Positions 2,850-37,292 of a stretch of 64,000 nucleotides of DNA are shown here, piece by piece; positions within the stretch are counted from its first letter, which is position 1, and every line of letters starts with the position of its first letter. A model generated the notes under the pieces. The model saw only the letters and a program-made list of their open reading frames with translations. It did no database searches and was not told the origin of the DNA. The position numbers and the translations under genes were made by a program. The stretch is taken from assembly GCA_046563655.1 (NCBI GenBank), contig CM102286.1:14074001-14138000 (forward strand), in the 5' to 3' direction. This DNA comes from Yuukianura sp. NJ FZ-2021 (taxonomy: Eukaryota).

Positions 2850-4395
2850 TTAGTTGTTGAAGCTATGTGCATCCTCCATGTCATCATCCAAAATTTCGTT
2901 TAAAGACGTTTGATTCAACATGTTCGTATCCGACCGAATGAATTTAGGAGTTCGTACGGTGTAGAATCCGCAAGTACCGACGACTTGGAGCAGTTCCGTT
3001 TTGTATCCCGGTAGAACTACAAATGTCAACGTGTGAATAGTTTCTTCGGATCGGACCTCTACGGATTTTTTCGTCCAGGAACCAAAGTTGGCCATAAGTA
3101 ATTTTCCGAGTGATGCCGAATCGTATCCAAGTTTGTCATAAGCTTCTGTGTCGCCTTTGGCCGCCAAATCCGAACGTCCAAGTCCAACTTTCTTTTGATA
3201 AGTGCATGTCAGCGGTGTGACGCCTTCGGTATTGTCACATTCCTTGACAACGTCCCAAGTTTCTTCCGGTGTACAGTTTTTAGCGGGATTCGGCACGTCA
3301 CAACATACCATGTCAACATTGTTCAAGCCAGTGTCATCCCCTGAAAAATTTCCAAGGTCACGATAAGCATGGTTGGCAAAAATATGTGCCAAAAAAACCA
3401 AAATATTGACAAAAAATTTTCTCTTTTTTTAAATCGCCCATATATACACTAATTTACAGCGCTGCCAAAAATATTTATTGAAAACCAGCGAAATATTTAA
3501 ATAAATGCAATATTCATTGTAAACGCTTGAAATATTTACTAACTTAACATTAAGGATATCGGAAAATAAATCAATATTTAGCAACAAAAAGACCTAAAGT
3601 ATTTTTTTTTGTTAACATTACAGGAACGGAAACTATATATTTTTGGTAAGTCAGCTAATTTAAAATTAAGGGCATGGGCAAATAAATAAATATTTAGCAA
3701 TGAAAATCCCCCAAATGTTTTGTTATTTATGTTACGAGCATGGAGACTAAATATGTTTGACATCCCTGTCCGCATAAACTTCATGCAAAATTTAAAATTT
3801 GGCAGAAAAACTTACGCTTCCCGCGGTATGGTTCCACTTGCGTCCGGAATCCACAGACGGCTTGTCGTTCTAGACAGTGTTGCGCAGAAGTCCAAGTTCC
3901 CTCAGTCGTTCCGTAACCTTCGACACTCACTCGCTTCTCGGAACAAAACAAATTCAAATTGTTTGCTGCCGTGTCATCCCGAGTATTCTTTCCAAAGATC
4001 CAACTGAAGAAGTTTGCGCCCTTTGACCTCTCTGACCTCAACTGAAATCCAGTCACAAAAGTGTGTTCTGGACAGAACAATACGGTTCCCCAACTGCCAT
4101 ATCCTCCTTCTTCTGATATAATGACACTCGCATTGTAGTGGTTCACTGGTTTCCCAATGGGAGAACAATGGAGTCGGATTGCATTCAAGGCAGTGTTGTC
4201 CGTGTATCCGAAGATACCCGGTTTTCGGATCGGCTCCACTTTGAGTTGCATGCCGTTGACATACTGGCCAGGGGGGCAGTGGACCAGTTGACCCCAGTGA
4301 CCCCATGTTGTCACACGCGGAGAGTGGATGACATAGTTACTCCCTCCAACAGCCACCAACAGGGTCACAGCAATTGTCAAACAAGATAACGTCAT
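2850..4395 (-). CDS. Secreted VMO-I (beta-prism I) domain protein with C-terminal beta-rich extension (exons 4395-3816, 3340-2850)
   Basis: Signal peptide MTLSCLTIAVTLLVAVGG. Three VMO-I repeats: WGHWG..CPPG..DNTALNAIRLHC; YGSWG..CP..DDTAANNLNLFC; GTWT..C..DDTGLNNVDMVCC. A phase-1 GT-AG intron 3815-3341 joins the two ORFs in frame. Confidence 0.85.
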
Positions 4396-5326
4396 TTTGA
4401 TTACAAATTTTGAAAAACTAAAAAAAAATTTCAAAAAGTTGTTTTTGTGAACTAAAGTTAGACATGAACCGTGTTGTGTACCATTAAAAACTAAACTGCT
4501 GTAGTTATGTTTTGTGTTGCTAGAAAGTTGTTTAGTTTTCACACAGATTAGCTTACACAGAAGTTAAACTAAAGAAAGTGAGATAAAAAGTTCAAATTGA
4601 CCTTTGACCTCACTTTGAGCCATTTCGATAACGCAAGAACCTAACACTTCCTTCTTCTCAATGTCACTTTATCATTTCCATGTCTAACTACGTCTAAAAC
4701 TTTAAACAACATCTATTAAAAAGTACATTTGAACAGTTGAATTTATTGCGTCACATTTTAAACTAGTCACAATTTTTTCAGGGTGACTCAAATTCCAATT
4801 CTTTTCAAACGAATTAAAAACAAGGATCGAATATCACAAAAGTTTTGACTGAAAAAAATTCTTATGTCAAAAAACTGTTTCAATTTGTGGAGTTACGACT
4901 ATGAGTCATAAAAAATCTTCACTTCCAGCAGTTTCTTCTGCTGATTTAAAAAATTTTCTCATACATTTGAAAAAATGACTTTTAAAAGAACAGCAAGTTC
5001 TATGTAACTTACATGTCTGAACGAGCCTCTTAGAAATTTTTGAAAACATAATTTCAAAATTCTGTTTTAAATTTTGAAAAGATTTGAAGATTGGCATAAA
5101 CTTCTGCGTTTTAGTACTTACGTTAGCTTCTGTAAAATGTGTGAAGTTATGAATTTCAATTGGAAGCAATTTGTATGGAAAATGAAAGGATTTGAGAACT
5201 TTGCTTAATTGGGCCTAAATTTCACACCTCTAATTATGAAAAGTGGGAAATTCCAGATTTTAACTCACAGAGATCGACTGATTTTTCAAATCACTTTATT
5301 TCATCAGTGCGATTTTAGAAACCAAA

Positions 5327-7244
5327 ATGGCTGCTCGCCGCCGAGGAGTTTTGGAGCAGGTAAGAAAAATTTGGATTCTTGAATTTTTGAAAAATCGAAA
5401 AAATATCTGTAAACGTTCATTCAAAATATGGATTTTGTATTTTTTTTAATTTGTGTGATGATGACGTTTTCAAGCCCGTTCGGTTCAACTTGAGTGAACA
5501 TGACGATCACGGCGAGGAGGTCATTGACCTCAGACCAAGGTCAGCCGAACCCACGCGCCGACGCAGATTAATGTCCGTTGAAAACACAACTTTAACTGAA
5601 GTTATAACAATTTACGAAAAGTTGAAAAAAGGGCGGGACAATCGCGGTGCACATCACGTGCCATTTGACATGACTTCGCGCCGAGTCAGATTCAGCACTT
5701 CCGGTGCAAATGGACCAATCCCGGTCATCCCAATTTTTAACATTCCAGCCGAAAAACAAGGCATTTCACTTCTGGATTTCAATCGATACCAAAATTTCCA
5801 TCCTAGTAAATATTTGTACTTTTCTGAAAAAACGAATCTCCTTCAGTCGAAATATTTGAATACACTTTCTCCCGTATATTCGAACCTGCTTACAGACAAG
5901 AATTACTGGTAAGGGAAAACTAGTAAATTCGAAAATTTTGAAAAAAAAAACTTCGAAAATATTTTTGAAAATCTTTAGGCTAAATATTTTCGACCCTGAC
6001 GAAGACGACTACTCACTGCTTTTTCACAGTTTTGGAGTTCACGATTTAACAATTAACGACATCCGGGAAGGAAATACTGAAGAAAAATTAGAAGCTTTTG
6101 AGCATTACACTTTCCTATCTCTGCGTCTAATTCGCGAAAATATGAAAGAACAAAAACGAAATGAAGATGTGGATTTTAATATTCTGCTTTTCAAAGACTT
6201 TGTTATCACGATCCACGAAAAAAATTGGCCCAGTATCACCGACATTCTTGGATTTCTGAACCTCTTAACCGCAAATTCAAAAACGGCGCTCTCCCCTGAT
6301 TGGATTTTGTTTTCAATTTTTATTGAAATGAACCAAGATGCCAAGTACATCATGAGTTTCATCGAACCCGAAATTAATAAAATCCGAATCGGAAGTAAAT
6401 CGGTTGACATCATGCGCCGAAATTTCGAAATGGAGTTACAAGTTTACTCGATTTCAAGATTTATCAAACCCAAAACAAGAATTTTGCGTCAATTGGGTGT
6501 CAAATGTGCTAAAAGAATTAGTCCAAGTGTGGCAAAACTTTTGGGTGACATTTTGACAGAATTGAACGAACAAGCAAAGGATATTACACAATTTAAACAC
6601 ATTTTGGAACGATCACAAGACACATTTTTGGCTATTATTACTTCTGACCAAGCACGAGAGTCAAATGAGGTCAACATGGTTGTGAAGAGGATCAGTGAAA
6701 TTGCTTTGGTACTTTTGCCAATTCAAATTATAGGTAAACATTTTTCGAAATTTTGACAAAAAATTTCATGATTTTCGAAGATTTCAATTTGAGTTTGTTC
6801 GAACTGGAGGCGAAGCCCCAGCAAACTTTGCGCTGCAAACTTACTTTGTTTTTAAAAAGGAATATTTTTTTTTGGATTAGTTTTGAATTCTTTTTTTGTT
6901 TTATTTTTTCTTCATATAATTCAAATTATGGGTAAAGATTTATTGAAAATTTTATGACAAAAAAAAACTCATTTTTCTAAACACCGTAAGTTTGCTGGAG
7001 AGGCGAAGCTCCAGCAAAATTTGCGCAGCAAACTTGTTTTTACCTTATTTCTGTTTTAACTTTTGGATTTTTTAATTTTTAATTTTTTTTTTTGTGCATA
7101 GGTGGCTTTATGGGCACGAATGTTCAAATTCCATTTCAAAATTCGGTTTACCCGGACACTATTGTTTTTTGGATCATGTGTCTCCTCAGTACTTTGGTTG
7201 GGTTGACCGTATTTCTTTTTCGGAAATATATTCTGTCTTACTAA
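5327..7244 (+). CDS. CorA/Alr1-Mnr2-like Mg2+ transporter, copy 2 (exons 5327-5359, 5475-5908, 5979-6733, 7102-7244)
   Basis: Clear paralogue of 891-2405 (shared MSVENTTLTE.ITIYEKLKKGR, FIEMNQDAKYIM, ILERSQDTFL). All three GT-AG introns keep the frame. The last exon reads GGFMGTNVQIPFQ...RKYILSY*. Confidence 0.85.
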
Positions 7245-7338
7245 AAATAAAAATTATTCCATTAAAAACTTTGTGTTTAACCAAATTTTTTAGATCTGAC
7301 TGAGTAGTCAAAATGATGTCCTAGTTTCTAATTTTCCG

Positions 7339-8554
7339 CTACTTTACTTTTTTAACGTCAGTTTCAGTATCTGTGAACGTCGTTCCGTCGTCGTCATTGA
7401 CGCTTCTGTCATAAATTCCTGGATGGGCACGTGATATATGCCTCTTGAGGTTGTAGCACGACCGAGGAGTTATTCTCAGTATTGTCTGGACTCCTACTTC
7501 GTCACAGTGTTTACACAGCGCTGCATTCTTGTCGCCTTCGTCCACTAAGAAATGCTTCCAAATAGGATTGCAACTCCGGCCACCTCCTTCTGGATCGTAG
7601 ATATTCGTAAAGACTTTCTTTTCTAAACCAATAGTTTCTGCAGGAGAAAACGAAAGATTATGAGAAAGTTAAACCACAAATTAATAGTTAATCAAAGTTT
7701 TTGTGAGGCTAACTCGAAACGCCAGGTTCATCTTTGTTGTGATCTGAATCTCCAGGGTTGGACTCAACTTCAACTGAGTTCTCCTTTTCCTGTTTGATCC
7801 GTTTAGTATGTGGTGTCAATCGCTTCATGGGCTTAAGCTTAAACATCGGTTTGGTCTTCTTATCAACCAAAGTTTCTTTATCCTCGTGGCTACTGCCATC
7901 ATCTTCTTCTTGGTCGGTTCCAATTCCGTCGCCGACATTCACGGCTGGAAATACAGTTTAGACATGGTTATAGTCCAGCGAATAACTTTGTAAGTAGATT
8001 AGTACTAATGGTATGCTTTGAATTCATCAGAGATTGTTGCTCTCGTTACATGTTCGCATTCGCTTTGTTCTTTGCTGTTTGGCTCTATTTCGTCTGGCCT
8101 TGGAAGTGGAAGTCCGCTCTACTTTTAGGAGATCGTCGAATTCGAAATCCGGATCGCCTAATGCTTCCACGTCAGCACCGGCTTCAGCATTTCCAACATC
8201 AACTCCATCAGAAAATTGAAGTGTGAAGCCTTGAGAAGCCAAGTTGCCAATGTCCTTCCAATGAAACAACACGCTTTGATACAGTGTTCGTTCGCGATTC
8301 AGTAGCTCCTGCTGGACTTGAAATTGGTCTGAAAACAAAATCCAAGTTACTAATATCATTTAACTATTATTAGTATTAATTTGTATTGTAATATTACGTA
8401 ATTTATATCAAAATTCACCATTTCTATTATTGAGAATCTGTTCCACGATTGCCATCTTCATGTTCATTTCATCCTGGAATAATTTCAGTTGCTTCTCCAG
8501 CCGTTTGAATTCGTTCCCAATGTCGCCGACATCCAACTTCTCCGCACGAGTCAT
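7339..8554 (-). CDS. Coiled-coil + single BED zinc-finger protein (about 4 exons)
   Basis: N-terminal exon MTRAEKLDVGDIGNEFKRLEKQLKLFQDEMNMKMAIVEQILNNRN. Last exon NPIWKHF...ALCKHC...NLKRHISRAH fits the BED consensus. Internal exon boundaries are approximate. Confidence 0.7.
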
Positions 8555-9118: not shown

Positions 9119-11441
9119 TTAAATTGGAAACGGAAGAATCTGATCTGGTTCTGGATGTTGTTGCTGATCAATGTGCCTGTTCCGCTTATGTTCAAAGAGA
9201 CTGGATATGTACTTTGCATTGCTCTGAGGATGAATCTGTTCACATCAGGAAAGAAAAAAGTTAGGGGTAATGGCAGCACATATGATTTGAATTATTACTT
9301 GTATCGGGTTATCCAAAATCTGTTACCTTAAGATGTCTCGCGAAGTTGTGACTGCCACGCCCTCTAATTCCTTTGTTGTTTGGTTTTTTAGATGAACATT
9401 CTTTACAGCGCATGACCACGTCTGGAGTGCCACAAGTTTTCTTGCCAGTGAAGTCCACAAAGTCAAAGAATGGTTCGAGAAATTGCATCCATCCGGGCAG
9501 TTTCTCCTCGGCATCCCTTCGCTTCGTTTTTCTATTTGCATTTATAATAGATCTTGGAAGGTCTACCGTATCAGTGGTGTTTACATCCAACTCTGAGACC
9601 AAACGATCTTTGACATCATGCTGGTCGTCATCAGTTTCACGAGATTCCTTCAAAATGGAAATGGTTTTAGCAAGTGTTACCAATTGGAATTAGTTACTGT
9701 AAATGTTCTACTAGAAGCGCGCTAATAATTATTTTTCGAGTTTTGCTCCGCGCTACGATGTAGAAACAAACTTTCTGTCGGTTTTATTTCAAAACTAATT
9801 TAAATTGTGGTAAATCAATCTAACATAACAATCTTCCAGTCATCGTTTCCACTCTTTATTAATATCAGATTCTTCAATCGAACTCTCCAATTATGCAATA
9901 TCCTTCGAATTTTCACAATCTGACTGAACGATGACTTCTTTCATTTCGGACGACATAAGTCGTCGACGCCTCCCACTTAAACGCTTTTTGACAGATGATT
10001 CAACTTGAACTCCAGACTCTGATTTTGTCGCAGCAACTAAAATCGGTAGAAAAGTATAAGGACAGTTTCAGAACTTCTAACTTATTCGTCAAATCTTACC
10101 AATTTTGTCTTTTTGTTGGAGCCAACTAAATACTTGTTTACGGTGGACACCAAAGTGAGCTGCTGTTCCATCGACTGTATGATTAGATGCGTACTCGATT
10201 ACTTTTAACTTAAAGCAAAGGTCAAACGATCTCCTCGATTTTCCGGTTTCTAAGCAGCACTGGTTACGATTTGAGTAGGTGGGCAGTAGCGGAACCGGAA
10301 AAGGGCAAAGAGTAAGATTTTTGTTTTCAAAATTATTCGCGTTTATCTCTCATTTTGCCTAGCCGGAATGCGCTTTGATTAGGATGCCGCTGCTATTAGG
10401 AATCGCGTTTTAATAGAACATTTACGGTAAGTTCAATTACCTTGGTTGTTTGGTCTACTCCACCGGGTTCATCTCCCGGCTCATGGTCGTCAGGACTGTC
10501 GTCTTGCTGCGGAAAACTTATATCTGGAATGTGTTTTTTAAGATGGCGGTATAAATTCCAAGTTCCGCCGCGTCGAGTTTTCAAAATGTGCTGAGTTCCC
10601 TCGTCTTCACAAAGTTTACACATGGCAGACATTCCATTTTCCTCTCGAAGATAGTACTTCCAGATAGGATTATTACTTTTCTCGCCTTTTTTGACACTTC
10701 CCGTGGTATAAAAGTTCACATAAACTTGCTTTTCTAACCCTCTCGAATCTGGAAGATACAAATACAATACACCACTCATCATGAGACATCGAATTAAGCC
10801 AAATCAAAAAGTTAAAGAAATTACCGTAGTCACTGCATGAAATATCCTCTTGATCCTCATTTTCAGAAGTATCGAGATCTTCTTGTTCCTCATTCAATGG
10901 GTCCCCATCTTCAGGGTCCTGTTCAACTGAAAGTTTTCAATGATAAAACGTAAACCCTTCGCCTTCAACATAAAGAAATGGTGGAGTTTGGAGTATGAAT
11001 TTACTTCGTTGCCGTTTTGATTGTAGTCGTTTGGAACGTTCCCTTCTCGCCTTAGATGATGACGGTCGTTTCTTAGACACTCCCACGCCCACCAATGGAT
11101 TCACTTTTAGATCTTCACTGCCTGTTTGTGCAAAATGCAGCGATATTCCATTTGCAGCCATGTCTTCAATGTTTTTCCAATGAACCAACACTGTTTGGTA
11201 GAGGGAATGCTCTCGTTCAAGTAAATCCTTCTGGATCTGGAACTGTTCTACAAAAACAAGAAGCTTCGATAAAAATAAAAGCATAACACGTCAAAATTCA
11301 TTTTGTTTTCCAGTTACCATTTCTGTTGTTTAGAACTTGTTCAACAATGCTCATTTTCATGTTCACTTCTGCCCTAAATGTCTGAAGTGTCTTCTCCAAT
11401 TTCAGCATTTTCGCAGTCAATTCCTCGTCGGTTGAACACAT
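9119..11441 (-). CDS. Coiled-coil + two BED zinc-finger protein, paralogue of 7339-8554 (multi-exon)
   Basis: The first two exons align with the neighbour (NMKMSIVEQVLNNRN; QFQIQKDLLEREHSLYQTVLVHWK). BED1 is NPIWKYY..CKLC..NLYRHLKKH; BED2 is CKEC..NFARHLK spliced to IHPQ. No transposase catalytic domain seen. Confidence 0.7.
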
Positions 11442-18759: not shown

Positions 18760-19483
18760 ATTTCAGCAAATGCCGCTGGAGAAAAGAAGTTGAGTTCCTT
18801 CACAGACGTTTTGTTAACTTAGAATGTAAAATTTTGAAGAATCAAAGCTACTACCATCTTGATTTCATAGAGAGCAAACAGAGTTGTAGTCCTGCACCCC
18901 ACGTACTGACTGTACTGACCATAATACTCTCCGCCCCTTTTTCATTAAGCTCCGCCTGTTTCAAAAATCGGTTTGGATTGTACTCTTCCGGTTTTTGAAA
19001 AATTTCGAAAGCAAAGCCACTGAGCATGAGCATTGGAGAGCACATTGCAACGGCATCTGCGTCTCCAACATGGTAGTCTCCCAGAGTGACATCTTTGTGT
19101 TGCGGTTTGCGGCAAAGTGGGAAGATGTGCGGTGCTCTCCGAGCACTTTCCATCACACAAGCGTTCATCAGCGCTGAATTCAAAATTGCCCGTGTATCAT
19201 TTTGCCCCAAATGGTCCTCACAATCTTCTCGGAGTTTGGTTCAGTATTCGGAATAACATGAAGATCTGTCAGAGTATGCGCAAGACCCAATGAGGAATTT
19301 TCTGAGCTGATGTAAAGTAAAGTAATAAGCCACGCCTTCGTTTGTTAGCCCTTGACCTGTGACCTCGTCAACATGATCTGCATCAGTTCGGATGATAATC
19401 GAGTCCCGCTTATTCGGATCTTCCCGGTACTTTTCAATTACTGGTGGACAGTAGTTTAGTGTTGCGCGCCGCAATGGGAGCCA
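18760..19483 (-). pseudogene. 3' half of a cytochrome P450 paralogue (copy of about 27295-28040), decayed
   Basis: Long near-identical stretch to the intact P450 (GQNDTRAILNSALMNACVMESARRAPHIFPLCRK...). Both ends carry indels and stops, and the heme-ligand region is disrupted (WGAGLQLCLL). Confidence 0.9.
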
Positions 19484-22207: not shown

Positions 22208-25200
22208 CTAATGTTGAATGAGTGAAAAGAGCGTTTGGTCAGTTGGTGGCAAATGGCTAACTTTGGCTACCGCTTCATCCCGAACTCGAACTCCCCAGGC
22301 TTTGAACATCGGTGTCAAATTTTCTCCAGCCGCCAATGAAAATTGGACCAACCAAGTATCTACTTTGTCTTGTTCAGAACTTGGTTTTGGCTCCAAAGTT
22401 TGATAATTTTTGAAAACTTTTTTGTAAGTGTCCCATCCATACTTGGCTTTCAGTTGATAGTAAAATAGCAGCCCCAACCATGGGTCATCCCCCAATCTTC
22501 ATAGTTCGGCCCCTTCTTAGCACTCGCTTCAATCCTACTGCGCACGACACTCGGTTCAAATCTATCTGGGCGTGCCTGGGCAGGCGTCATTCCGATCAGT
22601 TCTTCATAGACATACAAAGCAAACATGTTGTTTGTAACTTCCGTGACAACTGAGTATGTCCAAGTACTGACTTGATGGTTGTGTCCAATTTCATGGTAGA
22701 AGCCCCACCCATCTTCACTTCTCAGTTTAGCAACTGACAGCGCAGTCGCAACAGATTTGTCTGTAAGAATCATGATTGGATAGCCAGAGTGCATGTAACC
22801 AGCCGAAATTTGAACGTCTGCGCAGAGCCGTTCTGGGTATGGTCGGTTTCTTGGAATTGCCGCCAAATCTGCTTGGGCATCCATCACTTGATCCCAATAC
22901 TCCATAAGTTCAATTGGATTTTCCAATTCAGCCAATCGCGAGCCAGGGAGAGTCAAAATTAGTTTTTTCGTCTCAAGTTCCCCCCAGGGGCAAAGAGTTC
23001 CGTAATTTCTAATTTGGCGCCACTCATGTAACGTTGTTTTGCCCAACACAAAATATGGGGCCAAAATGGCTCCTGAAATGGTGAGGTCAACGACCTCTAG
23101 ATCTTTAGCGGTATCGGTTTGATGCAAGTAGATCAACCCACCAAAGGCATTGCGTATTTGAAGTTCCGTGCCACCGGTACGCAAATCCTTCCGAACAAGA
23201 ATTACCGGACACCGTTGCCACTCCGATTTTTTGGAAATGTCGTCCCGGTGAGTGCCAATTTGAATTGCAAATTTTTTGTGAGGAGCGTGGGAAAATTTAA
23301 CGGTAATTTCTTCGCCTGGTGGAGCATACAAACCGGTAGAGTACCACTGATCAGTTGTCGTTTCAATTCGAACCGAGTGACCTTGAACTCTGACTGCTCC
23401 TGATGAGGGGAGTCCAGGGAAGTAGCAGGCTGCTGGATGACAGTGACATGCGTTGTCCTTACTTCCTGGAGCGTCCTCTGCATTGTAAACATAGTTAACC
23501 ATCATTTTGATTTTGAATTTTTCCAAAGTATCAGTAATTGCATGGTGCTCCGAAGGAATGCTCTCTTTAAGCCCCGCCTCTTCCAATTCAAATTTCAACT
23601 TGGCGGGAAAGCTTCCTGGGCCGGTATTGGCCAACGAGTCGGCAGCCAGACTAAGTACTGCTGAGATTTGAGCGAGCCGGTCTTCTGGAAGTTGGATTTT
23701 GTTGGTCAGGTGCCATAGTAACAATTCCCAGCATGTGCTGGCGTTCATGTCTCTCAAGTCTTCGGAACGGGCAGTGTAGCCAACTTTGTCGGATTCAATC
23801 GGCTTCGGTTCGTAGCCTCCGTTCCAAGCAACTCCAGTTTCTTGCAATAACTAAAAAAAGAACACGAAAAAATTACATTTAAATTTAAATGTTGGCGGTA
23901 GGGGTGTATATCCGTCACGGATTTTTAGAAATCCGGATTTTGACGGATTTTTATTAAAAAATATGAATTTAAATCCGGATTTCAGAATACATAGGATTTT
24001 ACATAAGTGATTTTTTTTAGCTTCTCAAAATTATAATCAACGTGTTTTAAGCTCCAAGTACCAAAAAAAGTTGATAACGAATCTCAGGAGTTTCTTTTTT
24101 GTTTAACTTTTAATTGATTTAAACTAAATTTTCCGGTTTTCGTTATCAATTTTCAAATTGCCTATACCCGAGAATGGAGCAAAAAATCCGTCAAATCCGG
24201 ATTCAATTTTTTTGAAATCCGAATATAGGAGAATCCGAATCTGGCAAAAATCCGGAACACAAATCCGGTTTTATATCCGTAACATCTATCCGGATTTATA
24301 CTCGGGACAAAAATCCGGATTTACCCCTAGTTTGCGAGTGAAAACTGAAAATTAGGAGAAAAGAGAATTTTTAAAATTTTACCAAATTGCCGCAGAAATC
24401 TGTCTTCAAATTCGTTTTTTGTGCCCAAGCAGTTGCAGAAATGACGAGACCGCCGCCATTGATGATAAACTGTCGCAAGAGCTTGATGTGCGCAGAATCC
24501 GAAAGTGCATTGACATCCGTCACAACCAAAGTGTCAATGTCACTTAACTTGTCAGTGACTTGTCCAGAATTTTGAAAATATTCAAAATGGAAGTTTCCCT
24601 CGTTTTGACTCAGCCAATCCTTGATCCAATATTTTTCCAAAATTCCAACTCGTAGTTTTTCCCCGCCATTTCTCTTCCCGCCTGTCCAGTGTACACAGTT
24701 CGTCAACAATCGGGAAGTAGTTGGCAGTGTTGGATTGGTGAAGCAAGTATGACCGAAGGCCGTGATTCGTCCATTTCCGAACCGGGTAGCTCCGCCCACC
24801 GCTTGTCTCTCCGTGCCATGTTGTCCCGGGAGAATTACAAAAGCATCAGGGCCGTAAACACTCATCATGCCCACAGTGCCGGACTTTTCAACACCACCTT
24901 CTAGGCCTTTGAGTAACTCTTTCATGTCGTCGTCATGGTACCGGACGGCCCTGTTTTCCGAAATGGCCACGACTAACGGATGGCCCAAGGGCAGATATCT
25001 TTTGGCCAGAAAGTAACTGGCCTTAAGTTGGGCCTCCAGGGCTGAGTCGATCACGTGACCTCCGTTGTTGACCAATAGATTCCAAGCTTTCCCGCCATTA
25101 ATGTTTTCAAGCATATCGTGATCGGGCATCCACTTGTCGGAGTTGATCGGCGTCACTCCGTAGTCTCCAGTCCAGCCGAATCCAGCGTCATGGCAAATCT

Positions 25201-25825
25201 GTGTTACAAAAATTCTAAAAATGTCAAAGAATAAAATTTTTTTTCTTCAAAAACTTACCAAATTCGGTCCAAATGTCAAAATATTTTCCTTGTTCGGCCA
25301 TCCCGTTCCAGCAACGACCAAGCCACCACCCCTCTTAATAAAGTACTTCAAAGCATCTGCCACCCCTTGCGTCACTAGATGTACGTCGCCAACAATGACT
25401 GCGTCGAATCCATTTAAAGTTTTTCCGTCCTGAAGCGACGTGGCGTCAATTTCGCTAATTTTGAAAACCGTATCCGGTGCCCAGTTTTTCAAAGTTTGGT
25501 GGAATCCAACAATTCCAACCGATAAAGCGTTTGGAGCCTTTCCACTTCCAGCACTCGTCCAAAGAACGCAGTTGCGCAGAAGTTGATTCTGAAGACCCGA
25601 TTTAGGACGCGTATAAGTGTCATGTCCAAATCCAACGACACGCCCTTCACCAAAGTACGCTGCAGCCCCAATCGCTTGACGTGACCCGTCTTGAGCAAAT
25701 TTTCCCGCCAAAATTGGAAATGCCCGGGGGCTAAATACGGTCATAGGCCCAGGGGCTCCATCGAGGTCAACTCCAGCAGGTAAACTCGCAAACAATGTGT
25801 CAAAAGCGGCCTGTTGCAGAGACAT
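22208..25825 (-). CDS. Peptidase M60 / TCAF(FAM115)-like zinc metallopeptidase (exons 25825-25259, 25198-24383, 23850-22208) with a 1-nt frameshift near 22490
   Basis: WYSTGLYAPPGE, FGGLIY, PWGELE, ER..ADVQISAGYMHSGYPIM, WGFYHEIGHNHQ and EVTNN motifs. Two repeated N-terminal modules (RQAIGAAAYFGEGRVVGFGH / RQAVGGATRFGNGRITAFGH). Introns are phase 0. Confidence 0.85.
23901..24327. mobile_element. MITE-like element in intron 2 of the M60 gene
   Basis: TA-flanked imperfect terminal inverted repeats (GGGGTGTATATCCG ... CGGATTTACCCC), with many ATCCG/CGGAT subterminal motifs in opposite orientation at the two ends. A related single end sits at about 26010-26075. Confidence 0.6.
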
Positions 25826-26582
25826 TTTTGTAGAGGTCAAAAGGTCACGGTTTTACAAAACCAAAAGAAAAAACTGTACAATGTTATAAAAGTTGGGAAT
25901 TTTATAAGTCTGCAGCCAGGAAATGGTTAGGTTTATGATTAAGGTTTGATTATGGAATTAATTGATGTTAATTGGTTGGTGGTTCAATTAAAGTCGGTTT
26001 GGTTACCACTAGGGGTCGAAATTCGGATTTTGACTTCGGATTCAAATCCGAATTTTTGACGAATCCGAATAATTCGTACCACCAAGGACGTTTGACCAAT
26101 TGGATTCTCTGCGGTTTTTGCACTCAAAATGTTGTGGCATAAACTAGAATTAACTAACATTGATTAATGAATTTTGGATCATCAGACCACCTTGTTTTTT
26201 TTCTTCAAAAAATGAGCTTGAACATTTATAAATACTTCAGAAAACTTGAATGCTGCATCACAAAGCTATAATTGTCCATCTCCTGAAACGTTTAACTTTG
26301 GTTAAAAGTTGAGCCTTATTTTCCAAACATTTTTTTTTCATGTTCTAAATTTAGTCCGATGTCATGCAGTGTTTTACCCCTTTGGGTACAATATGCTACT
26401 CAATCCTTGAAATCTGTACTTTTGAACCATCGTTTACAAAACTTTCAAAAGATTACCCAAAAAAGTATTTTTCGTTGTTTCAATTCGGTACTTGAGTTAA
26501 ATTGTTTACATTCGAAGTAAGCAGTCACTTTTGTTTCGAGAAAAAAGGAATTGTCAAGATTTGAACAAAGGTGCAGCTTTAA

Positions 26583-26858: not shown

Positions 26859-27256
26859 ATTGAATTTTGGCTATTCGGATCCGTTAAAAACAAATTTACC
26901 AACTCAAATTGTGAAAAAAAAAAAATCTCTCCCTGTTCCCAATTACTATTCAATTATACTCAATTTTTTCTAAAATTTGTCAAATTTTGAATAAATTTTG
27001 CTATTTTGAGCCCCATTTTTTAGTACACTAATCTACGCGCTAAAACATTTTTAGCATCTCCTCAGTGGCTTGTAGGTTTTACCAATGTTTATAATTATTT
27101 ATTCACAACATAAAACTTAACTTTTCTTGAGTAGTAAAGCATTCAACAACAATATTGGCTTAGAATGGAATTAACATTTAAATCGAATTGAAGCTAAAAT
27201 TAAAAGTAAAACTTAAAAAAAAGCATGCAAAACATTTTCTAACCAGCATTTAAATT

Positions 27257-28849
27257 TTACGAAACAACTTTCACCAAAGTTTCAACTTCACGTTCAGCAA
27301 ATGCCGCTGGAGAAAAAAAGTTGAGTTCTTTCACAGACGTTTTGTTGACTTCAAATGTAAAATTTTGAAGAATCAAAGCCACCGCCATTTTGATTTCATA
27401 AAGAGCAAACATTTTCCCCGGACAAAGGTGTAGACCTGCACCCCAAGTCACAACGTTGTATTGGCCATAAGACTCTCCGCCCCCTTCTGCACTAAGCTCC
27501 GCCTTTTTCAAAAATCGATTTGGATTGTACTCTTCCGGTTTTTGAAAAATTTCGAAAGCAAAGCCACTGAGCATGAGCATTGGAGAGCACATAGCAACGG
27601 CATCTGCGTCTCCAACATGGTAGTCTCCCAGAGTGACATCTTTGTGTTGCGGTTTGCGGCAAAGTGGGAAGATGTGCGGTGCTCTCCGAGCACTTTCCAT
27701 TACACAAGCGTTCATCAGCGCTGAATTCAAAATTGCCCGCGTATCATTTTGCCCCAAATGGTCCTCGCATTCTTCACGCAGTTTGGTCCAGTATTCAGAA
27801 TAACATGCAAGATCTGTCAGAGTATGGGCAAGACCCAGTGAAGAATTTTCAGAACTAACGTAAAGTAGAGTCATGAGGAGAGCTGCCACGCCTTCGTTTG
27901 TTAGGCCTTGACCTGTGACCTCGTCAACATGATCCACAGCAGTTCGGATGATAAGCGAATCACGCTTATTTTGATCTTCCCGGTACTTTTCAATTTCGGG
28001 TTCAAAGTAGTTTAGCATCGTGCGCCGCAATGGGGCTAGCCATGGGTAGGTGATTGTACGCAGAACGCTTTTCGGTAAAAAGTAAGTTCCAATGATCATG
28101 TTGTTAATCAAATCAGAAAATTTTCGTAATGTTACGAAAATTTCATCCGTGAGTTCAAAACCTAAAAAACAGCGAGCGCTCGTGTTGGCAATAAAATTGA
28201 ACATTTCTTTGCGCAAGTCAATTTGGAGTGGAGATTTTTCACAAGCAGTTTTGAGTCGCTCTACCATTCGTTCCGCTTCAGATCGAATTTTTGGAACAAA
28301 TTCATCAAATTTGACGGCAATTGACTTCCGTACTAAACATGTTGTGAGTGTAACAGGATTCGGATTGGGGTAGGCAAAGCCATCGTCAAAGAAAAGATTC
28401 GACAGGATTTCGTTGAGTGACAAAGTTTCTTCAGTGGATTTAAAAAATTCGGGACTCAAATTTCTGTCACAGACGACAACAATTATTTGTCGAAACACTT
28501 TGATTTTAAAAACTTTTCCATATTTGGCGGCACAGGAACTTATGAATCCGAGTGGATCTTTTCCAAATGCAAGTCCATGTCCAACAATTGGCCAACATCC
28601 GGGCACCATTTCCACACGCTTTTTACCATTGACGAGATGGCTACGTCGTTGGCCACTCTTTTTGTGTAAGAAGTGGACTGTCAAAATTGCTCCCAAGACA
28701 CAAGTGAATAGCAACCACCCTACGGCCCACCTTATTTAAAAAGAAAAAAATTATCAAAATTTCAAAAACTAAAAAAAAACGGCATGAATTAGTCTCATTT
28801 TTCAAAGTTTTACAAAAGAAAAGAAAGTTTTAACATTTTCTCACATCAT
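27257..28849 (-). CDS. Cytochrome P450, CYP51-clan-like (micro-exon 28849-28845, exon 28730-27257)
   Basis: N-terminal membrane anchor, WPIVGHGLAFGKDP, KYGKVFKI, ExxR (ESAR), PNRF and heme motif WGAGLHLCPGKMFA. The I-helix is atypical (LYVSSENS). ATGAT|GTGAG...AG|G restores MMWAVGWLLF. Confidence 0.9.
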
Positions 28850-31471: not shown

Positions 31472-31920
31472 AATTTCGGGTTCAAAGTTAGTTAAGCATC
31501 GTGCGCCGCAAAGGGGCTTGCCAAGGGTAGGTGATTGTGGTTTTCATCCGGTTCATTTCATCCGGATGAGTTCAAAACCTAAGAAACAGCGAGCGCTTGG
31601 CATTAAAAGTGAGCATTTCTTTGCGCAAGTCAATTTGGAGTGGAGATTTTTCACAAGCCGTTTTGAGTCGCTCTACCATTCGTTTCGCTGCAGATCGATT
31701 TTTGGAACAAATTCATCAAATTTGACGGCAATTGACTGGCGTACTAAGACGGTTGTGAGTGTAACGGGATTTGGATTGGGGTAGGCAAATCCATCGTCAA
31801 AGAAAAGATTCGACAGGATTTCGTTGAGTGACAAAGTTTCGTCGGTGGATTTAAAAAATTCTGGACTCAAATTAGTCACATACGACCACAATTACTTGTC
31901 GAAATACTTTGATTTTAAAC
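31472..31920 (-). pseudogene. 5'-half fragment of the cytochrome P450 (copy of about 27992-28510), frameshifted
   Basis: NLSPEFFKSTDETLSLNEILSNLFFDDGFAYPNPNPVTLTT is nearly identical to the intact gene. There are several indels and an internal deletion of roughly 80 bp. Confidence 0.9.
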
Positions 31921-33574
31921 AATTTGATTTGACTTTGATTTCTATATTTGGACTACGACTTTTCTCGGCAAGTCAGAGGTCACCGGGTCTTTCGGCACTT
32001 TTCACTACTTTCGTAAACCCGGGTTCTAACGGGTTTATTAAGAGTGAGTTGAAACCGCAAGAGCTTTTAGATTTTCAAAAGCAAAAATGACATTTTCAAT
32101 TAACATAAATCCTCTTTGCACAATTTGAAACAGACTTCCACATTGCCAAATACGCCACAATTTTTTCGATTTTCAACTACACCGACGTGCTATGGTTCTA
32201 GGTTTTGAAAACTCAGCCAGAACTGTCCCAGAAGAGTCCTTTTTAGGGTAAGTAAGTATTCCCAAAATTTTGGGTATGTAGAAAAGAGGGTTGAAAAATG
32301 TGGGAAAATGAGGGAACTCATACTTTCTAAAGTCCAAAATAGACTTCGTTTGTCTGTAAACGTGAAATCTAACGTTTCTAAAGCTAAGTTTTAAATTCAA
32401 TAGACAATATTTATCATTAGTTTATTTTTTTCTACTTCAAGAAGACTTCAGTTATTTAGCAGAGAAATGAAGGTAAAATTGTATTTTTAGCACGTGCGAC
32501 TCGGATTGTTTGATTTTTTTCCATGATACCTTATGTACGCTTGACCATGAAAAAATATTTTTTTATTGCTACGATCTCAAAAACTAAATTAAAAAAAAAT
32601 GTTTAAACTTTTTTTCTGTGCTCCATTTGGATGAAAATCTAAATTACTTAGATCTGCAATCAGATTTGGCGGTTTTTGTCAAACAACCACAACAAAAAAA
32701 CAAACGAAAATCCGCGTCACATGATGAAAGTAAAATTTTTCCAGTAAATTAAGTGAGCCGCTCGAGAACTGAATAACTTATTTAGTTTTCAAAATTCCCT
32801 CAAAATTTTATTTAGAAAAATGCCTTAACGCTTGCGAGTACCCTGAAAACGGGTAGTTTCTGCTAACCTAAAATATTTGATCTTGTGTTTTTATAGATAG
32901 AATTTCAATATTTTAGTTCTATGAAAAAAATGTCAATTTGGTTCAGGGGGTGGCAAAAATGCCTTAGCGACCAAAACCGATTCTCGAGTTGTTTACAATT
33001 TCACTCGCAATTACGTCACTCCGAGTTAAAATACAGGTTCATCCAAGTTTTTAAGCTATTTTTATGTTTGCGGCGAAAGTTTTGAGACTAAAAATCATGA
33101 AAATGTTGAACAGCACTGTAAATGAGTGAACTCGAAGTCAAAGAAATCCCATAGCAACTCAGTTTTGAAAAAACAATTTTAAGCGACCGTACCTATAAGT
33201 ATCCTATTTACCATGAATTTGGTTCAACTTTTTTTCGTACTGAATACTGAATTTTCAGTTTTCAAATTAAATACTTGTAACGTTAATTTTATCCTAATCG
33301 AGCACACTTTAATCGTTTCCTTAGCAACCGGTGGGTGGACTAGAACAACGAAACTTAGAACGAACGAGACTTGTCGAGGCTGGAAGAAGAATGGATGAAA
33401 TCATGATCAAGTTATATGGAGAAGTGTCTCGACTCCTGGTCACTTGAAATTTCCGAAAATTTTGTGCCAAAAAACTGTTGATCCGTTTTTTTTTCCTGGA
33501 AGATCCTGCAACATTTAAAAGAAGATTAGAACCAAATTAACCTTTAAACTCATCCTAAGAATTTCAGCCAATTT

Positions 33575-34799: not shown

Positions 34800-37190
34800 A
34801 AACAACCTTGTTTAACTCGAAATTTTGTTTCAATGAACTAAAACAATTTTCAAAAAATCTGAGCAATTAAAAATATAGTTAAAGAGAAAATAATTGATCC
34901 AAATCTTTTCCTGGTGGAAGGGTTCCCAGGATTGAGGCGGAGTTCCCTCTCTGAATTGCAATGCTAATATTTTGAAGCAGAAAAGTAGTGGCTCTGTGTT
35001 CTCCAGTGGGTTCTGCAATTCGTTGACCAATTGACTTGATGAGTTGTAGACCCTCAGCTCCAAAGACGCCCGTAGTTTCTACTGCAACGATTGAAACGAT
35101 GAATTGATGATGAAGGTCGTCGTAGAGTCTGTGTTTCTGAGTTTCAGCCAAGGAGGCAGGGTAACCACTGGTACAAGAAGAGTTGGTAATGTAGGAGTTC
35201 GCAAACGTGTCTCGACATGTTACATCCCAAACCAAACATCGTCCAGTTTTCCATGGGATCAAAGTGATTCCGTCTGGTCGTTTCCCATCGGAGCGAGAAC
35301 ATCCTGGTGGTTCCTTCAAGCAGGGAATACCGGCTGAATGGAGAGCTCGAACAATAAGGTCATTGATTGAATCATGTCTCGAGTGTCTTCCTGCGCTTTT
35401 GATACAACTCAGTCCGTGAAGACCGTTACCATCGACAGGGGCGCCACAGCGACATCGGTGAGGTAAACAAATTTCGCAACCAAGCCGTAGAGAACAGGAA
35501 ATCCTAAAACAATCGTTAGACAAAAGTGTACCAAGTTGAGAAGACGGCAACACCTTCAGCCAATCACCGGAGTGAGGGGCAACAGCAGCAATTAGTCGTG
35601 CTTTGTCAGTCAAAGTAGTGGAATTCTCGAGTAATGTCTTGTAAGTTTCGGTTGACACCAATTTCTCCCAATCTTTTTGTATCTTGCAATTAACTGGAAA
35701 CTGGAAGCCATTATTGGACCATTGCAAAGTTGCTGAATCAGTAGATGCATCGAATGGAGAGAGGTGAAGTGGCAGGAATGTGTTGATCAGGTCAGCACAA
35801 CTGTAGATTGAAGCCAAAAACGAGAAAGTAGCACAATCTGTAGCATGCCGGATTCCAAGGCCACCTTCGTCCACAGGTAGGGAAGTTTGAGTCCATGCAG
35901 AGTCTGTTAAGTTGATGTTCAGAATTTTTTCGATGACTTCCCGAAGAGCTGCATCATAAGCTTTCAACAGATCTTCTTCCAGAAAAGATGGTGCGCAGCG
36001 CAGGAAATATGACAGTCTTGGAGTCGATATTGAGGCTCTTAGTAAGAAGAATGCCACGTGAGAGGGTAGGGCTAAGAGCTTAGACGAAAGTTTTTCAAAA
36101 TCATCTGTCTTGACTTTCAAAATACGTCGACCAGACGCCTTGTATAGTGGGGCCCCAAGAAGTTCAGCATCTGATTCATCACATATGTGGATTTCTGGAG
36201 CGAAGGAAAGAAAAGAGTCCGCAATGACTTGAGATTCCGTTGGATCAGCGCCTAAGATGATGATCTCGCACTTTTCCATGTTGATCTGAAGTCCAAAAGA
36301 AGCTGCATTGTTGACGAGCTGCTTGAGATGATTGAGGATTACTTCAGGAGTATCTGCAATGGTTCCATCATCAAGATACCAAACATTGAGTTCTGAGTTG
36401 ATTGAAGTGGCAAGAGGGTGAATTGTGAGAGCAAAGAGGGCTGGACCAAGTGCATCACCCTGTTGAACACCGAGACTTGACTTGATTATGGATGATCCGT
36501 AGAATAAATTGGACTCTGCAGAATAGGCTTGATAGATGTAGTTGTAGAACTCTGGAAGGACCAGCTTTGCAGAATGTAGCATGTGATCTCTTCTGATGAG
36601 ATTGAAAGCATTCTTGAAGTCAATTTTCAGCATGACCTTGCTGGCTGAGTGTAAGGAATTGACATAGATTCTTGCGGCGTGGGCTGTAGCTTCTGCTCCA
36701 TTTTTGACTCCAACACCGTTTTGTACTGGGCTCAAGTATGGAACAATGTTTTTCATGGATCTTGATAGTACAAGCTTTGATGTCAGACGTCGCCAAGTTA
36801 ACCCAATTGCGATAGGACGAATTCTCCCATTCTTTTTCTGAAGAGCAATCAATGAGGCGCCGTAGAAAATTGGACGGACGAGATCGGGAATGGCGTTGTT
36901 GATGATAAGATTTGAGAGATTTGTAATGGAAGAAAGCAGTTTCTGACCAGAATCTCCAGTGACCTTTGAAGTAAGTTCTTTCAAAACTTGGGGACGTAGG
37001 CAGTCGAGACCACCAGCTGAACCATTCGGAAAGGAAGAGATTGATTTCAGTACTTCATGTTCGTCGAAAATAACTTCAATTGGTTGGGGAGGATCTGGAA
37101 GACTGATTGGAGTTGGATGAGGAGGATGAAGTTTGTGAAGGGCGTCTAATGTCGATGAATCTTGATAGGCAATTGAATCGTCTGAGATGT
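34800..37190 (-). mobile_element. 5'-truncated non-LTR retrotransposon, CRE-like (RT + CCHC + restriction-like endonuclease); ORF 37185-34879
   Basis: Intronless ORF with RPIAIG, KIDFKNAFN, GVQQGDALGP and WYLDDG (RT), C.C...HGLSC...RH (zinc knuckle) and KRPDG...LVWDVT (PD-(D/E)xK endonuclease). The frame stays open upstream of the TTG call (SAGGLDCLRPQ) but has no ATG before a stop at about 37203. Confidence 0.9.
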
Positions 37191-37292
37191 TAATTTCATT
37201 TTACCTAAACAAATATACCACAAATGGTATATTTTTCATATATACCACAAGTGGTATATTTCTTTGAAGATTTAGTAAAAAAATTTAAAAAA

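Follow-up and report, generated by a model that had tools for sequence, protein, structure and literature searches.

The nearest described relatives of the gene reported here are cytochrome P450s (P450s) of giant viruses in the mimivirus group, which form a family annotated as 'putative lanosterol 14-alpha demethylase'. Its member in Acanthamoeba polyphaga mimivirus (APMV; protein P0072, 709 amino acids (aa)) is presumably the protein called L808 or CYP5253A1, and the family as a whole is presumably the one called CYP5253. Most P450s carry an acid-Thr pair in the I-helix and open the haem motif with F, members of one P450 family share at least 40% identity by rule, and, to our knowledge, the CYP51 clan is absent from published arthropod P450 sets. 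BLAST matches labelled 'CYP51A1' in the springtails Folsomia, Orchesella, and Allacma (25-33.5% identity) have nevertheless been used, with others, to argue for sterol synthesis in these animals, in passages that do not mention a viral affinity (PMC11321324), and 28 'alien' P450s of the fungus gnat Bradysia have been traced to springtails (17), mites (10), and fungi (1) (PMC12051294, PMC11665903). Here we describe a P450 gene on the minus strand (27257-28849) of a 64,000-nucleotide (nt) window from Yuukianura sp. NJ FZ-2021 (contig CM102286.1, positions 14,074,001 to 14,138,000; "the window" is this whole stretch of analysed DNA), which encodes an intact product of ~493 aa. Judged from sequence comparison, this gene is probably functional and adapted to its host, and probably belongs to the family of the mimivirus 'putative lanosterol 14-alpha demethylase' and not to the true CYP51s or to the standard P450s of arthropods.

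Database matches of the window P450 were uniformly of one kind: all 108 at E<=0.001 carried the Pfam p450 domain and most also carried PF13532 (AlkB-type 2-oxoglutarate (2OG)-Fe(II) oxygenase), with many of the relatives being proteins of 650-780 aa that combine p450 and PF13532. The named viral matches were from APMV (39% identity), Fadolivirus (40%), Cotonvirus (39%), two moumouviruses (38-40%), Hyperionvirus (40%), and Harvfovirus (39%). Across this search and a second one against 1.84 billion representatives, which returned 85 proteins at E<=1e-30, viral identity was 38-42% over ~90-98% of the protein, values that vary by member and method and lie astride the 40% family rule. Among named proteins, the 'putative lanosterol 14-alpha demethylase' of Folsomia candida (P0003, 730 aa), encoded on a chromosome-scale contig of 10.8 Mb, came closest (50% identity); the velvet mite Dinothrombium tinctorium was matched at 42%, and further named members came from the fungus Calcarisporiella and one protist transcriptome. 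True CYP51s, bearing AGQHTS, first appeared in the search of representatives at ~1e-22 and weaker, with 24-29% identity. In an IQ-TREE phylogeny of 52 rows (quick search, LG+C20+F+G4 with posterior mean site frequencies (PMSF)), the family was separated from CYP51 with 100% support in the Shimodaira-Hasegawa-like approximate likelihood-ratio test (SH-aLRT). The first-pass annotation, made from the letters of the window, had been reminded of the CYP51-like P450s of giant viruses, and both the viral identities and this separation bear the resemblance out. Arthropod clans 2, 3, 4, and mitochondrial provided none of the closest relatives, since the named matches besides Folsomia and Dinothrombium were from viruses, the fungus, and the protist transcriptome, and the solved Clan 2/3 enzymes CYP1A2 and CYP3A4 matched at ~1e-9, compared with 8e-34 for CYP51. 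Nesting within one of these four arthropod clans, which had been named beforehand as the refuting outcome, did not occur.

The first-pass annotation had also singled out a non-canonical I-helix and a haem motif starting with W. Both are present, but as traits of the whole family and not as oddities of this gene. In a motif table of 158 rows, the I-helix LLYVSSENT/S-LG spans nearly the whole giant-virus-type family; the family haem loop TWG.G.H.CPGK is likewise present in the window P450, where the loop TWGAGLHLCPGK reads TWGAGLHLCPG, includes Cys438, and has W in the place of the initial F of the motif; and all 23 of the 23 family members aligned carry the same residue at Y292, S294, E296, N297, H436, C438, P439, and G440. 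Because the motif spans the family and these residues are invariant, the odd I-helix and the W are best regarded as family hallmarks. Asn297 in the place of the conserved Thr would also be compatible with a haem-thiolate enzyme that works without O2 activation and rearranges (hydro)peroxides, similar to allene oxide synthase or prostacyclin synthase, which are also without the I-helix Thr (CYP74 and CYP8A use an I-helix Asn). Such a chemistry would fit viruses without a P450 reductase, and prostaglandin I2 synthase was found among the solved-structure matches (1.9e-11). However, Glu296 keeps the usual acid position, both fold and sequence are nearer to CYP51 than to prostacyclin synthase, and a lipoxygenase-like partner gene was not seen among the window open reading frames (ORFs) scanned, and we consider a peroxide-rearranging enzyme quite improbable.

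The best solved-structure matches by sequence were all CYP51 (Leishmania 8e-34, trypanosomes ~1e-30, human ~1e-24), and CYP51s also ranked first in a Foldseek comparison with the AlphaFold model (TMq 0.70-0.78), although at only 17-22% identity. The N-terminal stretch GHGLAFGKDPLGF...KYGKVF aligns residue for residue with Leishmania CYP51, and the earlier description of the protein as CYP51-clan-like is thus well founded. Features shared with CYP51 are the P450 fold, the haem-thiolate C438, and ESAR. At the aligned I-helix positions, by contrast, CYP51 reads AGQHTS and the window P450 VSSENS, which places Glu296-Asn297 where CYP51 has His-Thr (the 11 CYP51 outgroup rows carry (A/G)GQHTS or GGMHNS), and in the B'-helix and B'-C loop the CYP51 rows read VPVFGKGVVYD (P.FG.GV.YD) and the window P450 LFFDDGFAYPNPNP (FFDDGFAYPNP). 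These comparisons bear on the reading that the 2024 springtail cuticle paper gave to its matches, in which the gene would be a genuine sterol 14-alpha demethylase (CYP51) completing a springtail sterol pathway. The nearest solved proteins by sequence and fold and the closely aligned N-terminal region favor that reading, as do the CYP51A1 matches in three springtails (25-33.5%) and the cholesterol found in yeast-fed animals (PMC11321324). Against it are the replacement of both signatures and the position of CYP51 across a branch with 100% support. Identity is also far under the 40% rule, both in the fold alignments and with the CYP51 representatives, and overall we find a genuine CYP51 highly improbable. 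The springtail accessions themselves may belong to the giant-virus-type family, to judge from the annotation of the Folsomia match; if so, the argument that springtails, unlike insects, synthesize sterols needs re-examination at that step (PMC11321324).

The window gene consists of the following elements, given in the order of transcription.
28845..28849, minus strand: coding end of exon 1, ATGAT, giving the start codon (predicted, from reading of the sequence).
28731..28844, minus strand: predicted spliceosomal intron of 114 nt, GTGAG...pyrimidine tract...AATAAG, GC 0.20 (from reading of the sequence and an intron at the same codon in a metagenome relative, L003).
27257..28730, minus strand: exon 2, the entire P450 body in one exon, with the stop codon TAA at 27257-27259 (ORF, Pfam p450, AlphaFold2).
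28649..28732, minus strand: N-terminal hydrophobic helix, residues 2-29 of the protein (P0001), WAVGWLLFTCVLGAILTVHFLHKK... (helix in the model; a hydrophobic run followed by basic residues).
27839..27868, minus strand: I-helix motif LLYVSSENSS, residues 290-299 (alignment to CYP51 and the motif table of 158 rows).
27686..27697, minus strand: K-helix ExxR motif, here ESAR, residues 347-350 (motif table; E347 and R350 invariant).
27404..27451, minus strand: haem-binding loop VTWGAGLHLCPGKMFA, residues 429-444, with the thiolate ligand Cys438 at 27422-27424 (H436, C438, P439, and G440 invariant).
27098..27103, minus strand: predicted AATAAA poly(A) signal, 156 nt past the stop codon.

The claim that the P450 is intact holds: read from stop to stop, its ORF (27257..28735, minus strand) has 492 codons and zero internal stops, and the Pfam p450 profile matches the protein at E 1.5e-44 over profile positions 5-452 of 462. 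The core P450 elements were all found, including a PERF-like NPNRF, and the AlphaFold2 model has a mean pLDDT of 88.3 and a pTM of 0.87. In this model the N-terminal helix looks like an anchor in the endoplasmic reticulum (ER) membrane.

Within the ORF, the first in-frame ATG is only at Met43, and the start codon is instead predicted to lie upstream of an intron. The sequence 5' of the ORF reads ATGAT/GTGAG (the slash marking the predicted exon border), then 114 nt of 20% GC with a pyrimidine run, then AATAAG/G, and the predicted splice product starts M-M-W-A-V-G-W.... The last 2 bases of exon 1 and the first G of exon 2 also make an ATG, and exon 1 may contribute 5 coding nt or as few as 2. 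A similar arrangement occurs in L003, a 2318-bp metagenome contig encoding a 457-aa relative with 75-77% aa identity to the window P450. There, GAT/GTAAGT, 100 nt, and TTGAAG/G place an intron at the identical codon, the frame opens right after stop codons without an ATG, and the start codon arises only across the junction (AT/G). Because the two introns are at the same codon, an intron that splits the start codon appears to be common to two diverged genomes. The earlier statement that the sole intron follows a 5-nt coding micro-exon is therefore upheld for the predicted intron, and less certain for the length of the coding part, which is maybe 2 nt. That host genes are intron-dense, as was also stated, is correct for the ISWI and kinesin genes of the window, which are in short exons, but not for the CorA and M60-like neighbours, with open frames of 459 and 466 codons.

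Comparison of the window and L003 coding sequences (CDSs) over 488 aligned codons gave a proportion of nonsynonymous differences (pN) of 0.157 and of synonymous differences (pS) of 0.818, a value at which synonymous sites are saturated. We used these raw pN/pS proportions because a dN/dS ratio is not computable with saturated synonymous sites. Identities by codon position were 0.775/0.881/0.426 and, given these and the contrast of pN with pS, both the window and L003 P450s appear to have been under long-term, strong purifying selection. The base composition of the window P450 CDS (GC 0.43; GC at third codon positions (GC3) 0.389) is in line with the GC3 of host neighbours (ISWI exon 0.44, kinesin exon 0.39), unlike that of two giant-virus loci with overall GC of 0.27 and 0.36. 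The intron in common with L003, the pN and pS values, the host-like GC3, and the predicted poly(A) signal support the proposal of the first-pass annotation that this would be a domesticated enzyme.

The window gene differs from most of its relatives in domain architecture. An oxygenase tail is present in Folsomia, in Dinothrombium, and at a viral locus (L002), while the window gene and L003 stop straight after the P450 domain, with no AlkB-like tail. When the C-terminal domains of the Folsomia, APMV, and Dinothrombium proteins were compared with the whole window, no match was obtained (best E 1.3), and the tail is thus absent from the window and not split off nearby. The tail is not universal in the family, as Fadolivirus has a P450-only protein (P0046, 479 aa) as well as a fused form. 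At L002, a giant-virus contig of 1.02 Mb, the fusion gene (3929-6112, plus strand) stands tail to tail with an ERG4/ERG24 sterol reductase (6449-7786, minus strand; 1.5e-83); the window P450 has no sterol-reductase neighbour in the window.

Phylogenetic analyses placed the window protein with that of Folsomia. A FastTree analysis of 134 full-length P450 domains, rooted on 11 CYP51s, grouped the pair of the window protein and P0002 with the pair of Folsomia and P0004 at 0.987, deep within the family, with Dinothrombium elsewhere. SH-aLRT support in the 52-row IQ-TREE phylogeny was 100% for the window pair, 98% for the Folsomia pair, and 96% for the four together. When the window protein, P0002, Folsomia, P0004, and Dinothrombium were held together, the tree was 8.0 log-likelihood units above the free quick tree, and because the approximately unbiased (AU) test gave p-AU 0.625, a single arthropod clade is not rejected. 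The data are compatible with a single uptake that then spread from one soil arthropod to another, and also with two separate uptakes from donors of a similar kind. As for direction, transfer from virus to arthropod would be the more economical, because members are widespread in the mimivirus group, the viruses and Folsomia have the same fused architecture, the gene body is without introns, and the arthropods known to have the gene belong to two soil lineages.

Several observations weigh against this assignment and its direction. In the 52-row tree, 19 of 49 inner branches had less than 80% support and the backbone is a bush. A 30-row tree (LG+F+G4), from which intermediate lineages were left out, draws the window pair beside the CYP51 outgroup with all others, including Folsomia, grouped at 96.8/76; in the same tree a split with 96.7/77 support sets the window pair, the Folsomia pair, and the outgroup apart from the rest. 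Where the root falls, and with it which donor is implied, depends on the model. Viral predominance in the family rests on the named minority of relatives and on contig sizes, and a scan of IMG/VR gave only 2 loci. Family members also occur in a fungus and a protist, and a non-viral donor is therefore conceivable. At the second viral locus (L001, from a giant-virus metagenome-assembled genome (GVMAG)), sterol reductase is absent within 4 kb and FNIP-repeat genes are found instead, and the literature yielded no reported substrate for any family member.

Some of these observations would be expected if the family were an old eukaryotic or animal CYP51-clan branch that persisted in a handful of soil arthropods, fungi, and protists, was captured by giant viruses, and reached the window genome by inheritance. 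The eukaryotic members (Folsomia, Dinothrombium, Calcarisporiella, and the protist transcriptome), the 30-row tree with the window pair nearest the outgroup, the better likelihood of the five arthropod-side rows held together, and the weak backbone are all in favor of such a history. Nonetheless, we judge it unlikely. The gene body is intronless whereas the ISWI and kinesin neighbours are in short exons, only two named arthropods occur among the database matches, and we know of no CYP51-clan member in published arthropod P450 sets. The arthropod rows also nest within the family when intermediate lineages and a site-heterogeneous model are used, and the 30-row placement unites the two longest branches, a pattern expected from long-branch attraction and one that we read as such here. 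Membership in the mimivirus family, with acquisition of the gene by an arthropod, remains our preferred reading.

The surroundings of the gene agree with an arthropod-like genome, as had been proposed from the letters alone: the best named matches of the ISWI exon, at 88-94% identity, were hexapods, including Folsomia candida (91%) and Orchesella (88-89%). Among the 19 large ORFs of the window that were scanned, two encode CorA-type proteins and others VOMI, a zinc-dehydrogenase exon, an M60-like peptidase, a reverse transcriptase, an ISWI exon, and a kinesin exon, and no viral-island genes were seen. Two decayed partial copies of the P450 were also recovered.
18762..19483, minus strand: decayed partial copy A, residues 232-481, 88% nt identity (tblastn, blastn).
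31472..31925, minus strand: decayed partial copy B, residues 74-242, 90-92% nt identity (tblastn, blastn).

Copy A has an in-frame stop, a frame change within the haem loop, and a scrambled I-helix, and copy B is interrupted by frame changes and stops and has lost an internal segment. They lie 8 kb and 3 kb from the intact P450, one on each side, among arthropod genes. The copies are collinear on the minus strand, have just 43 nt of gene sequence in common, and differ in their divergence from the intact gene. A single older copy might leave this layout if a ~12-kb segment holding the intact gene had parted it, but breakpoint evidence for such a split was not found. With decayed copies nearby, the P450 has been duplicated in place, which contamination does not explain. 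The nearest named relatives being viral is what would be expected from assembly contamination or a recent, undomesticated insertion of giant-virus DNA. However, no other viral-type gene occurs among the large ORFs scanned, the spliceosomal-type intron is in common with L003, GC3 is host-like, the decayed copies stand amid arthropod genes, and the protein is conserved while synonymous sites are saturated. We give almost no credence to contamination or a recent insertion.

Other features of the window include tandem CorA-type magnesium-transporter genes at 1026-2405 and 5391-6756 (both plus strand; Pfam CorA 5.7e-32 and 1.1e-21). The M60-like (enhancin/TCAF-type) peptidase gene at 22450-25852 (minus strand) is large and has very long exons; at 35-44% identity, its best matches came from M60 peptidases of bacteria and TCAF proteins of vertebrates, none of the 120 matches listed was from a named arthropod, and it is maybe another foreign or fast-evolving gene. 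A 773-codon frame at 34879-37200 (minus strand; RVT_1 1.7e-18), 3 kb past P450 copy B, is probably a non-LTR (long terminal repeat) retrotransposon. Paired similar frames at 9309-9689, 10396-10803, 8027-8359, and 10937-11290 (all minus strand) have the look of a duplicated unit, with one weak match to a BED zinc finger (3.7e-4) and two frames sharing '...LYQ.VL.HWK.I...', and are possibly a transposon-derived pair.

We hypothesize the following history and function for the window P450. A lineage of soil micro-arthropods, most likely springtails, would have acquired an intronless copy from a mimivirus-group giant virus or from an unknown carrier of the family. Folsomia would retain the two-domain form, while in the window lineage a paralogue would have lost the oxygenase tail, gained the short intron splitting the start codon, taken on host base composition, duplicated locally, and been retained by selection. 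The N-terminal helix would anchor the enzyme in the ER membrane, Cys438 would bind haem, and electrons would come from the host P450 reductase. The substrate may be a sterol or a similar polycyclic or isoprenoid lipid, which we propose because the fold resembles that of CYP51 and a viral homologue has a sterol reductase as its neighbour. Since the CYP51 signatures of the B'-region and the I-helix are replaced, 14-alpha demethylation is probably not the reaction catalysed, and the invariant Glu-Asn in place of acid-Thr may point to a change in proton delivery or in the chemistry of oxygen, or to a substrate that is already oxidised.

A more far-reaching form of this proposal, which we put forward tentatively and with more doubt than confidence, is that micro-arthropods took both the P450 and its AlkB-like dioxygenase from giant viruses, and that at least one springtail lineage cut the fusion down to an ER-anchored P450 that remodels sterols or cuticular isoprenoids (e.g., dietary fungal sterols to cholesterol) by a Glu-Asn chemistry unlike that of any characterised sterol P450. 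If true, the springtail 'CYP51' cited for de novo sterol synthesis would have come from a virus and would serve another purpose. Transfer from a giant virus to an animal with long-term use is rarely documented for metabolic enzymes, and the forms described here make up a traceable series: a fusion in viruses and Folsomia, a gene without the tail but with a predicted intron in the window, and decayed copies beside it. An animal copy that is amenable to knock-down could also provide a workable means of learning what the viral enzymes do. What appears new is a tail-less, selectively kept animal member, with a predicted intron, of a known giant-virus P450 family. We found no link of springtail or mite P450s to giant viruses in a literature search that lacked key arthropod P450 reviews, and we do not claim novelty for the link itself.

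Compared with known systems, the window P450 is nearest among solved proteins to CYP51 (Leishmania infantum 3l4d, human 3ld6, Methylococcus 6mcw) in both sequence and fold, and the region after the anchor is similar (GH..FGKDPLGF...KYG.F), but low identity in the fold alignments, the change from AGQHTS to VSSENS, the loss of the B'/B'-C signature, and separate clades distinguish the two. The 'alien' P450s of Bradysia are a parallel in that they reflect horizontal P450 movement among soil micro-arthropods, which can be regarded as an accepted theme for soil arthropods, and a difference in that the passages describing them do not mention a viral source (PMC12051294, PMC11665903). Closer are the Folsomia protein (P0003) and P0004, which are sister to the window pair (96% SH-aLRT, 0.987 in FastTree); Folsomia has kept the fusion of P450 and 2OG-oxygenase, whereas the window lineage is without the tail and sits on a long stem branch (0.72 changes/site). 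Most viral members of the mimivirus type likewise have the C-terminal AlkB-like 2OG-Fe(II) oxygenase that the window gene does not, and the window gene further differs from them in its predicted intron, host-like composition, position on an animal chromosome, and surroundings without a sterol reductase. With these mimivirus-type enzymes it nevertheless shares the I-helix LLYVSSENT/S, ESAR, TWG.G.H.CPGK, the N-terminal hydrophobic anchor, and membership in one clade apart from CYP51.

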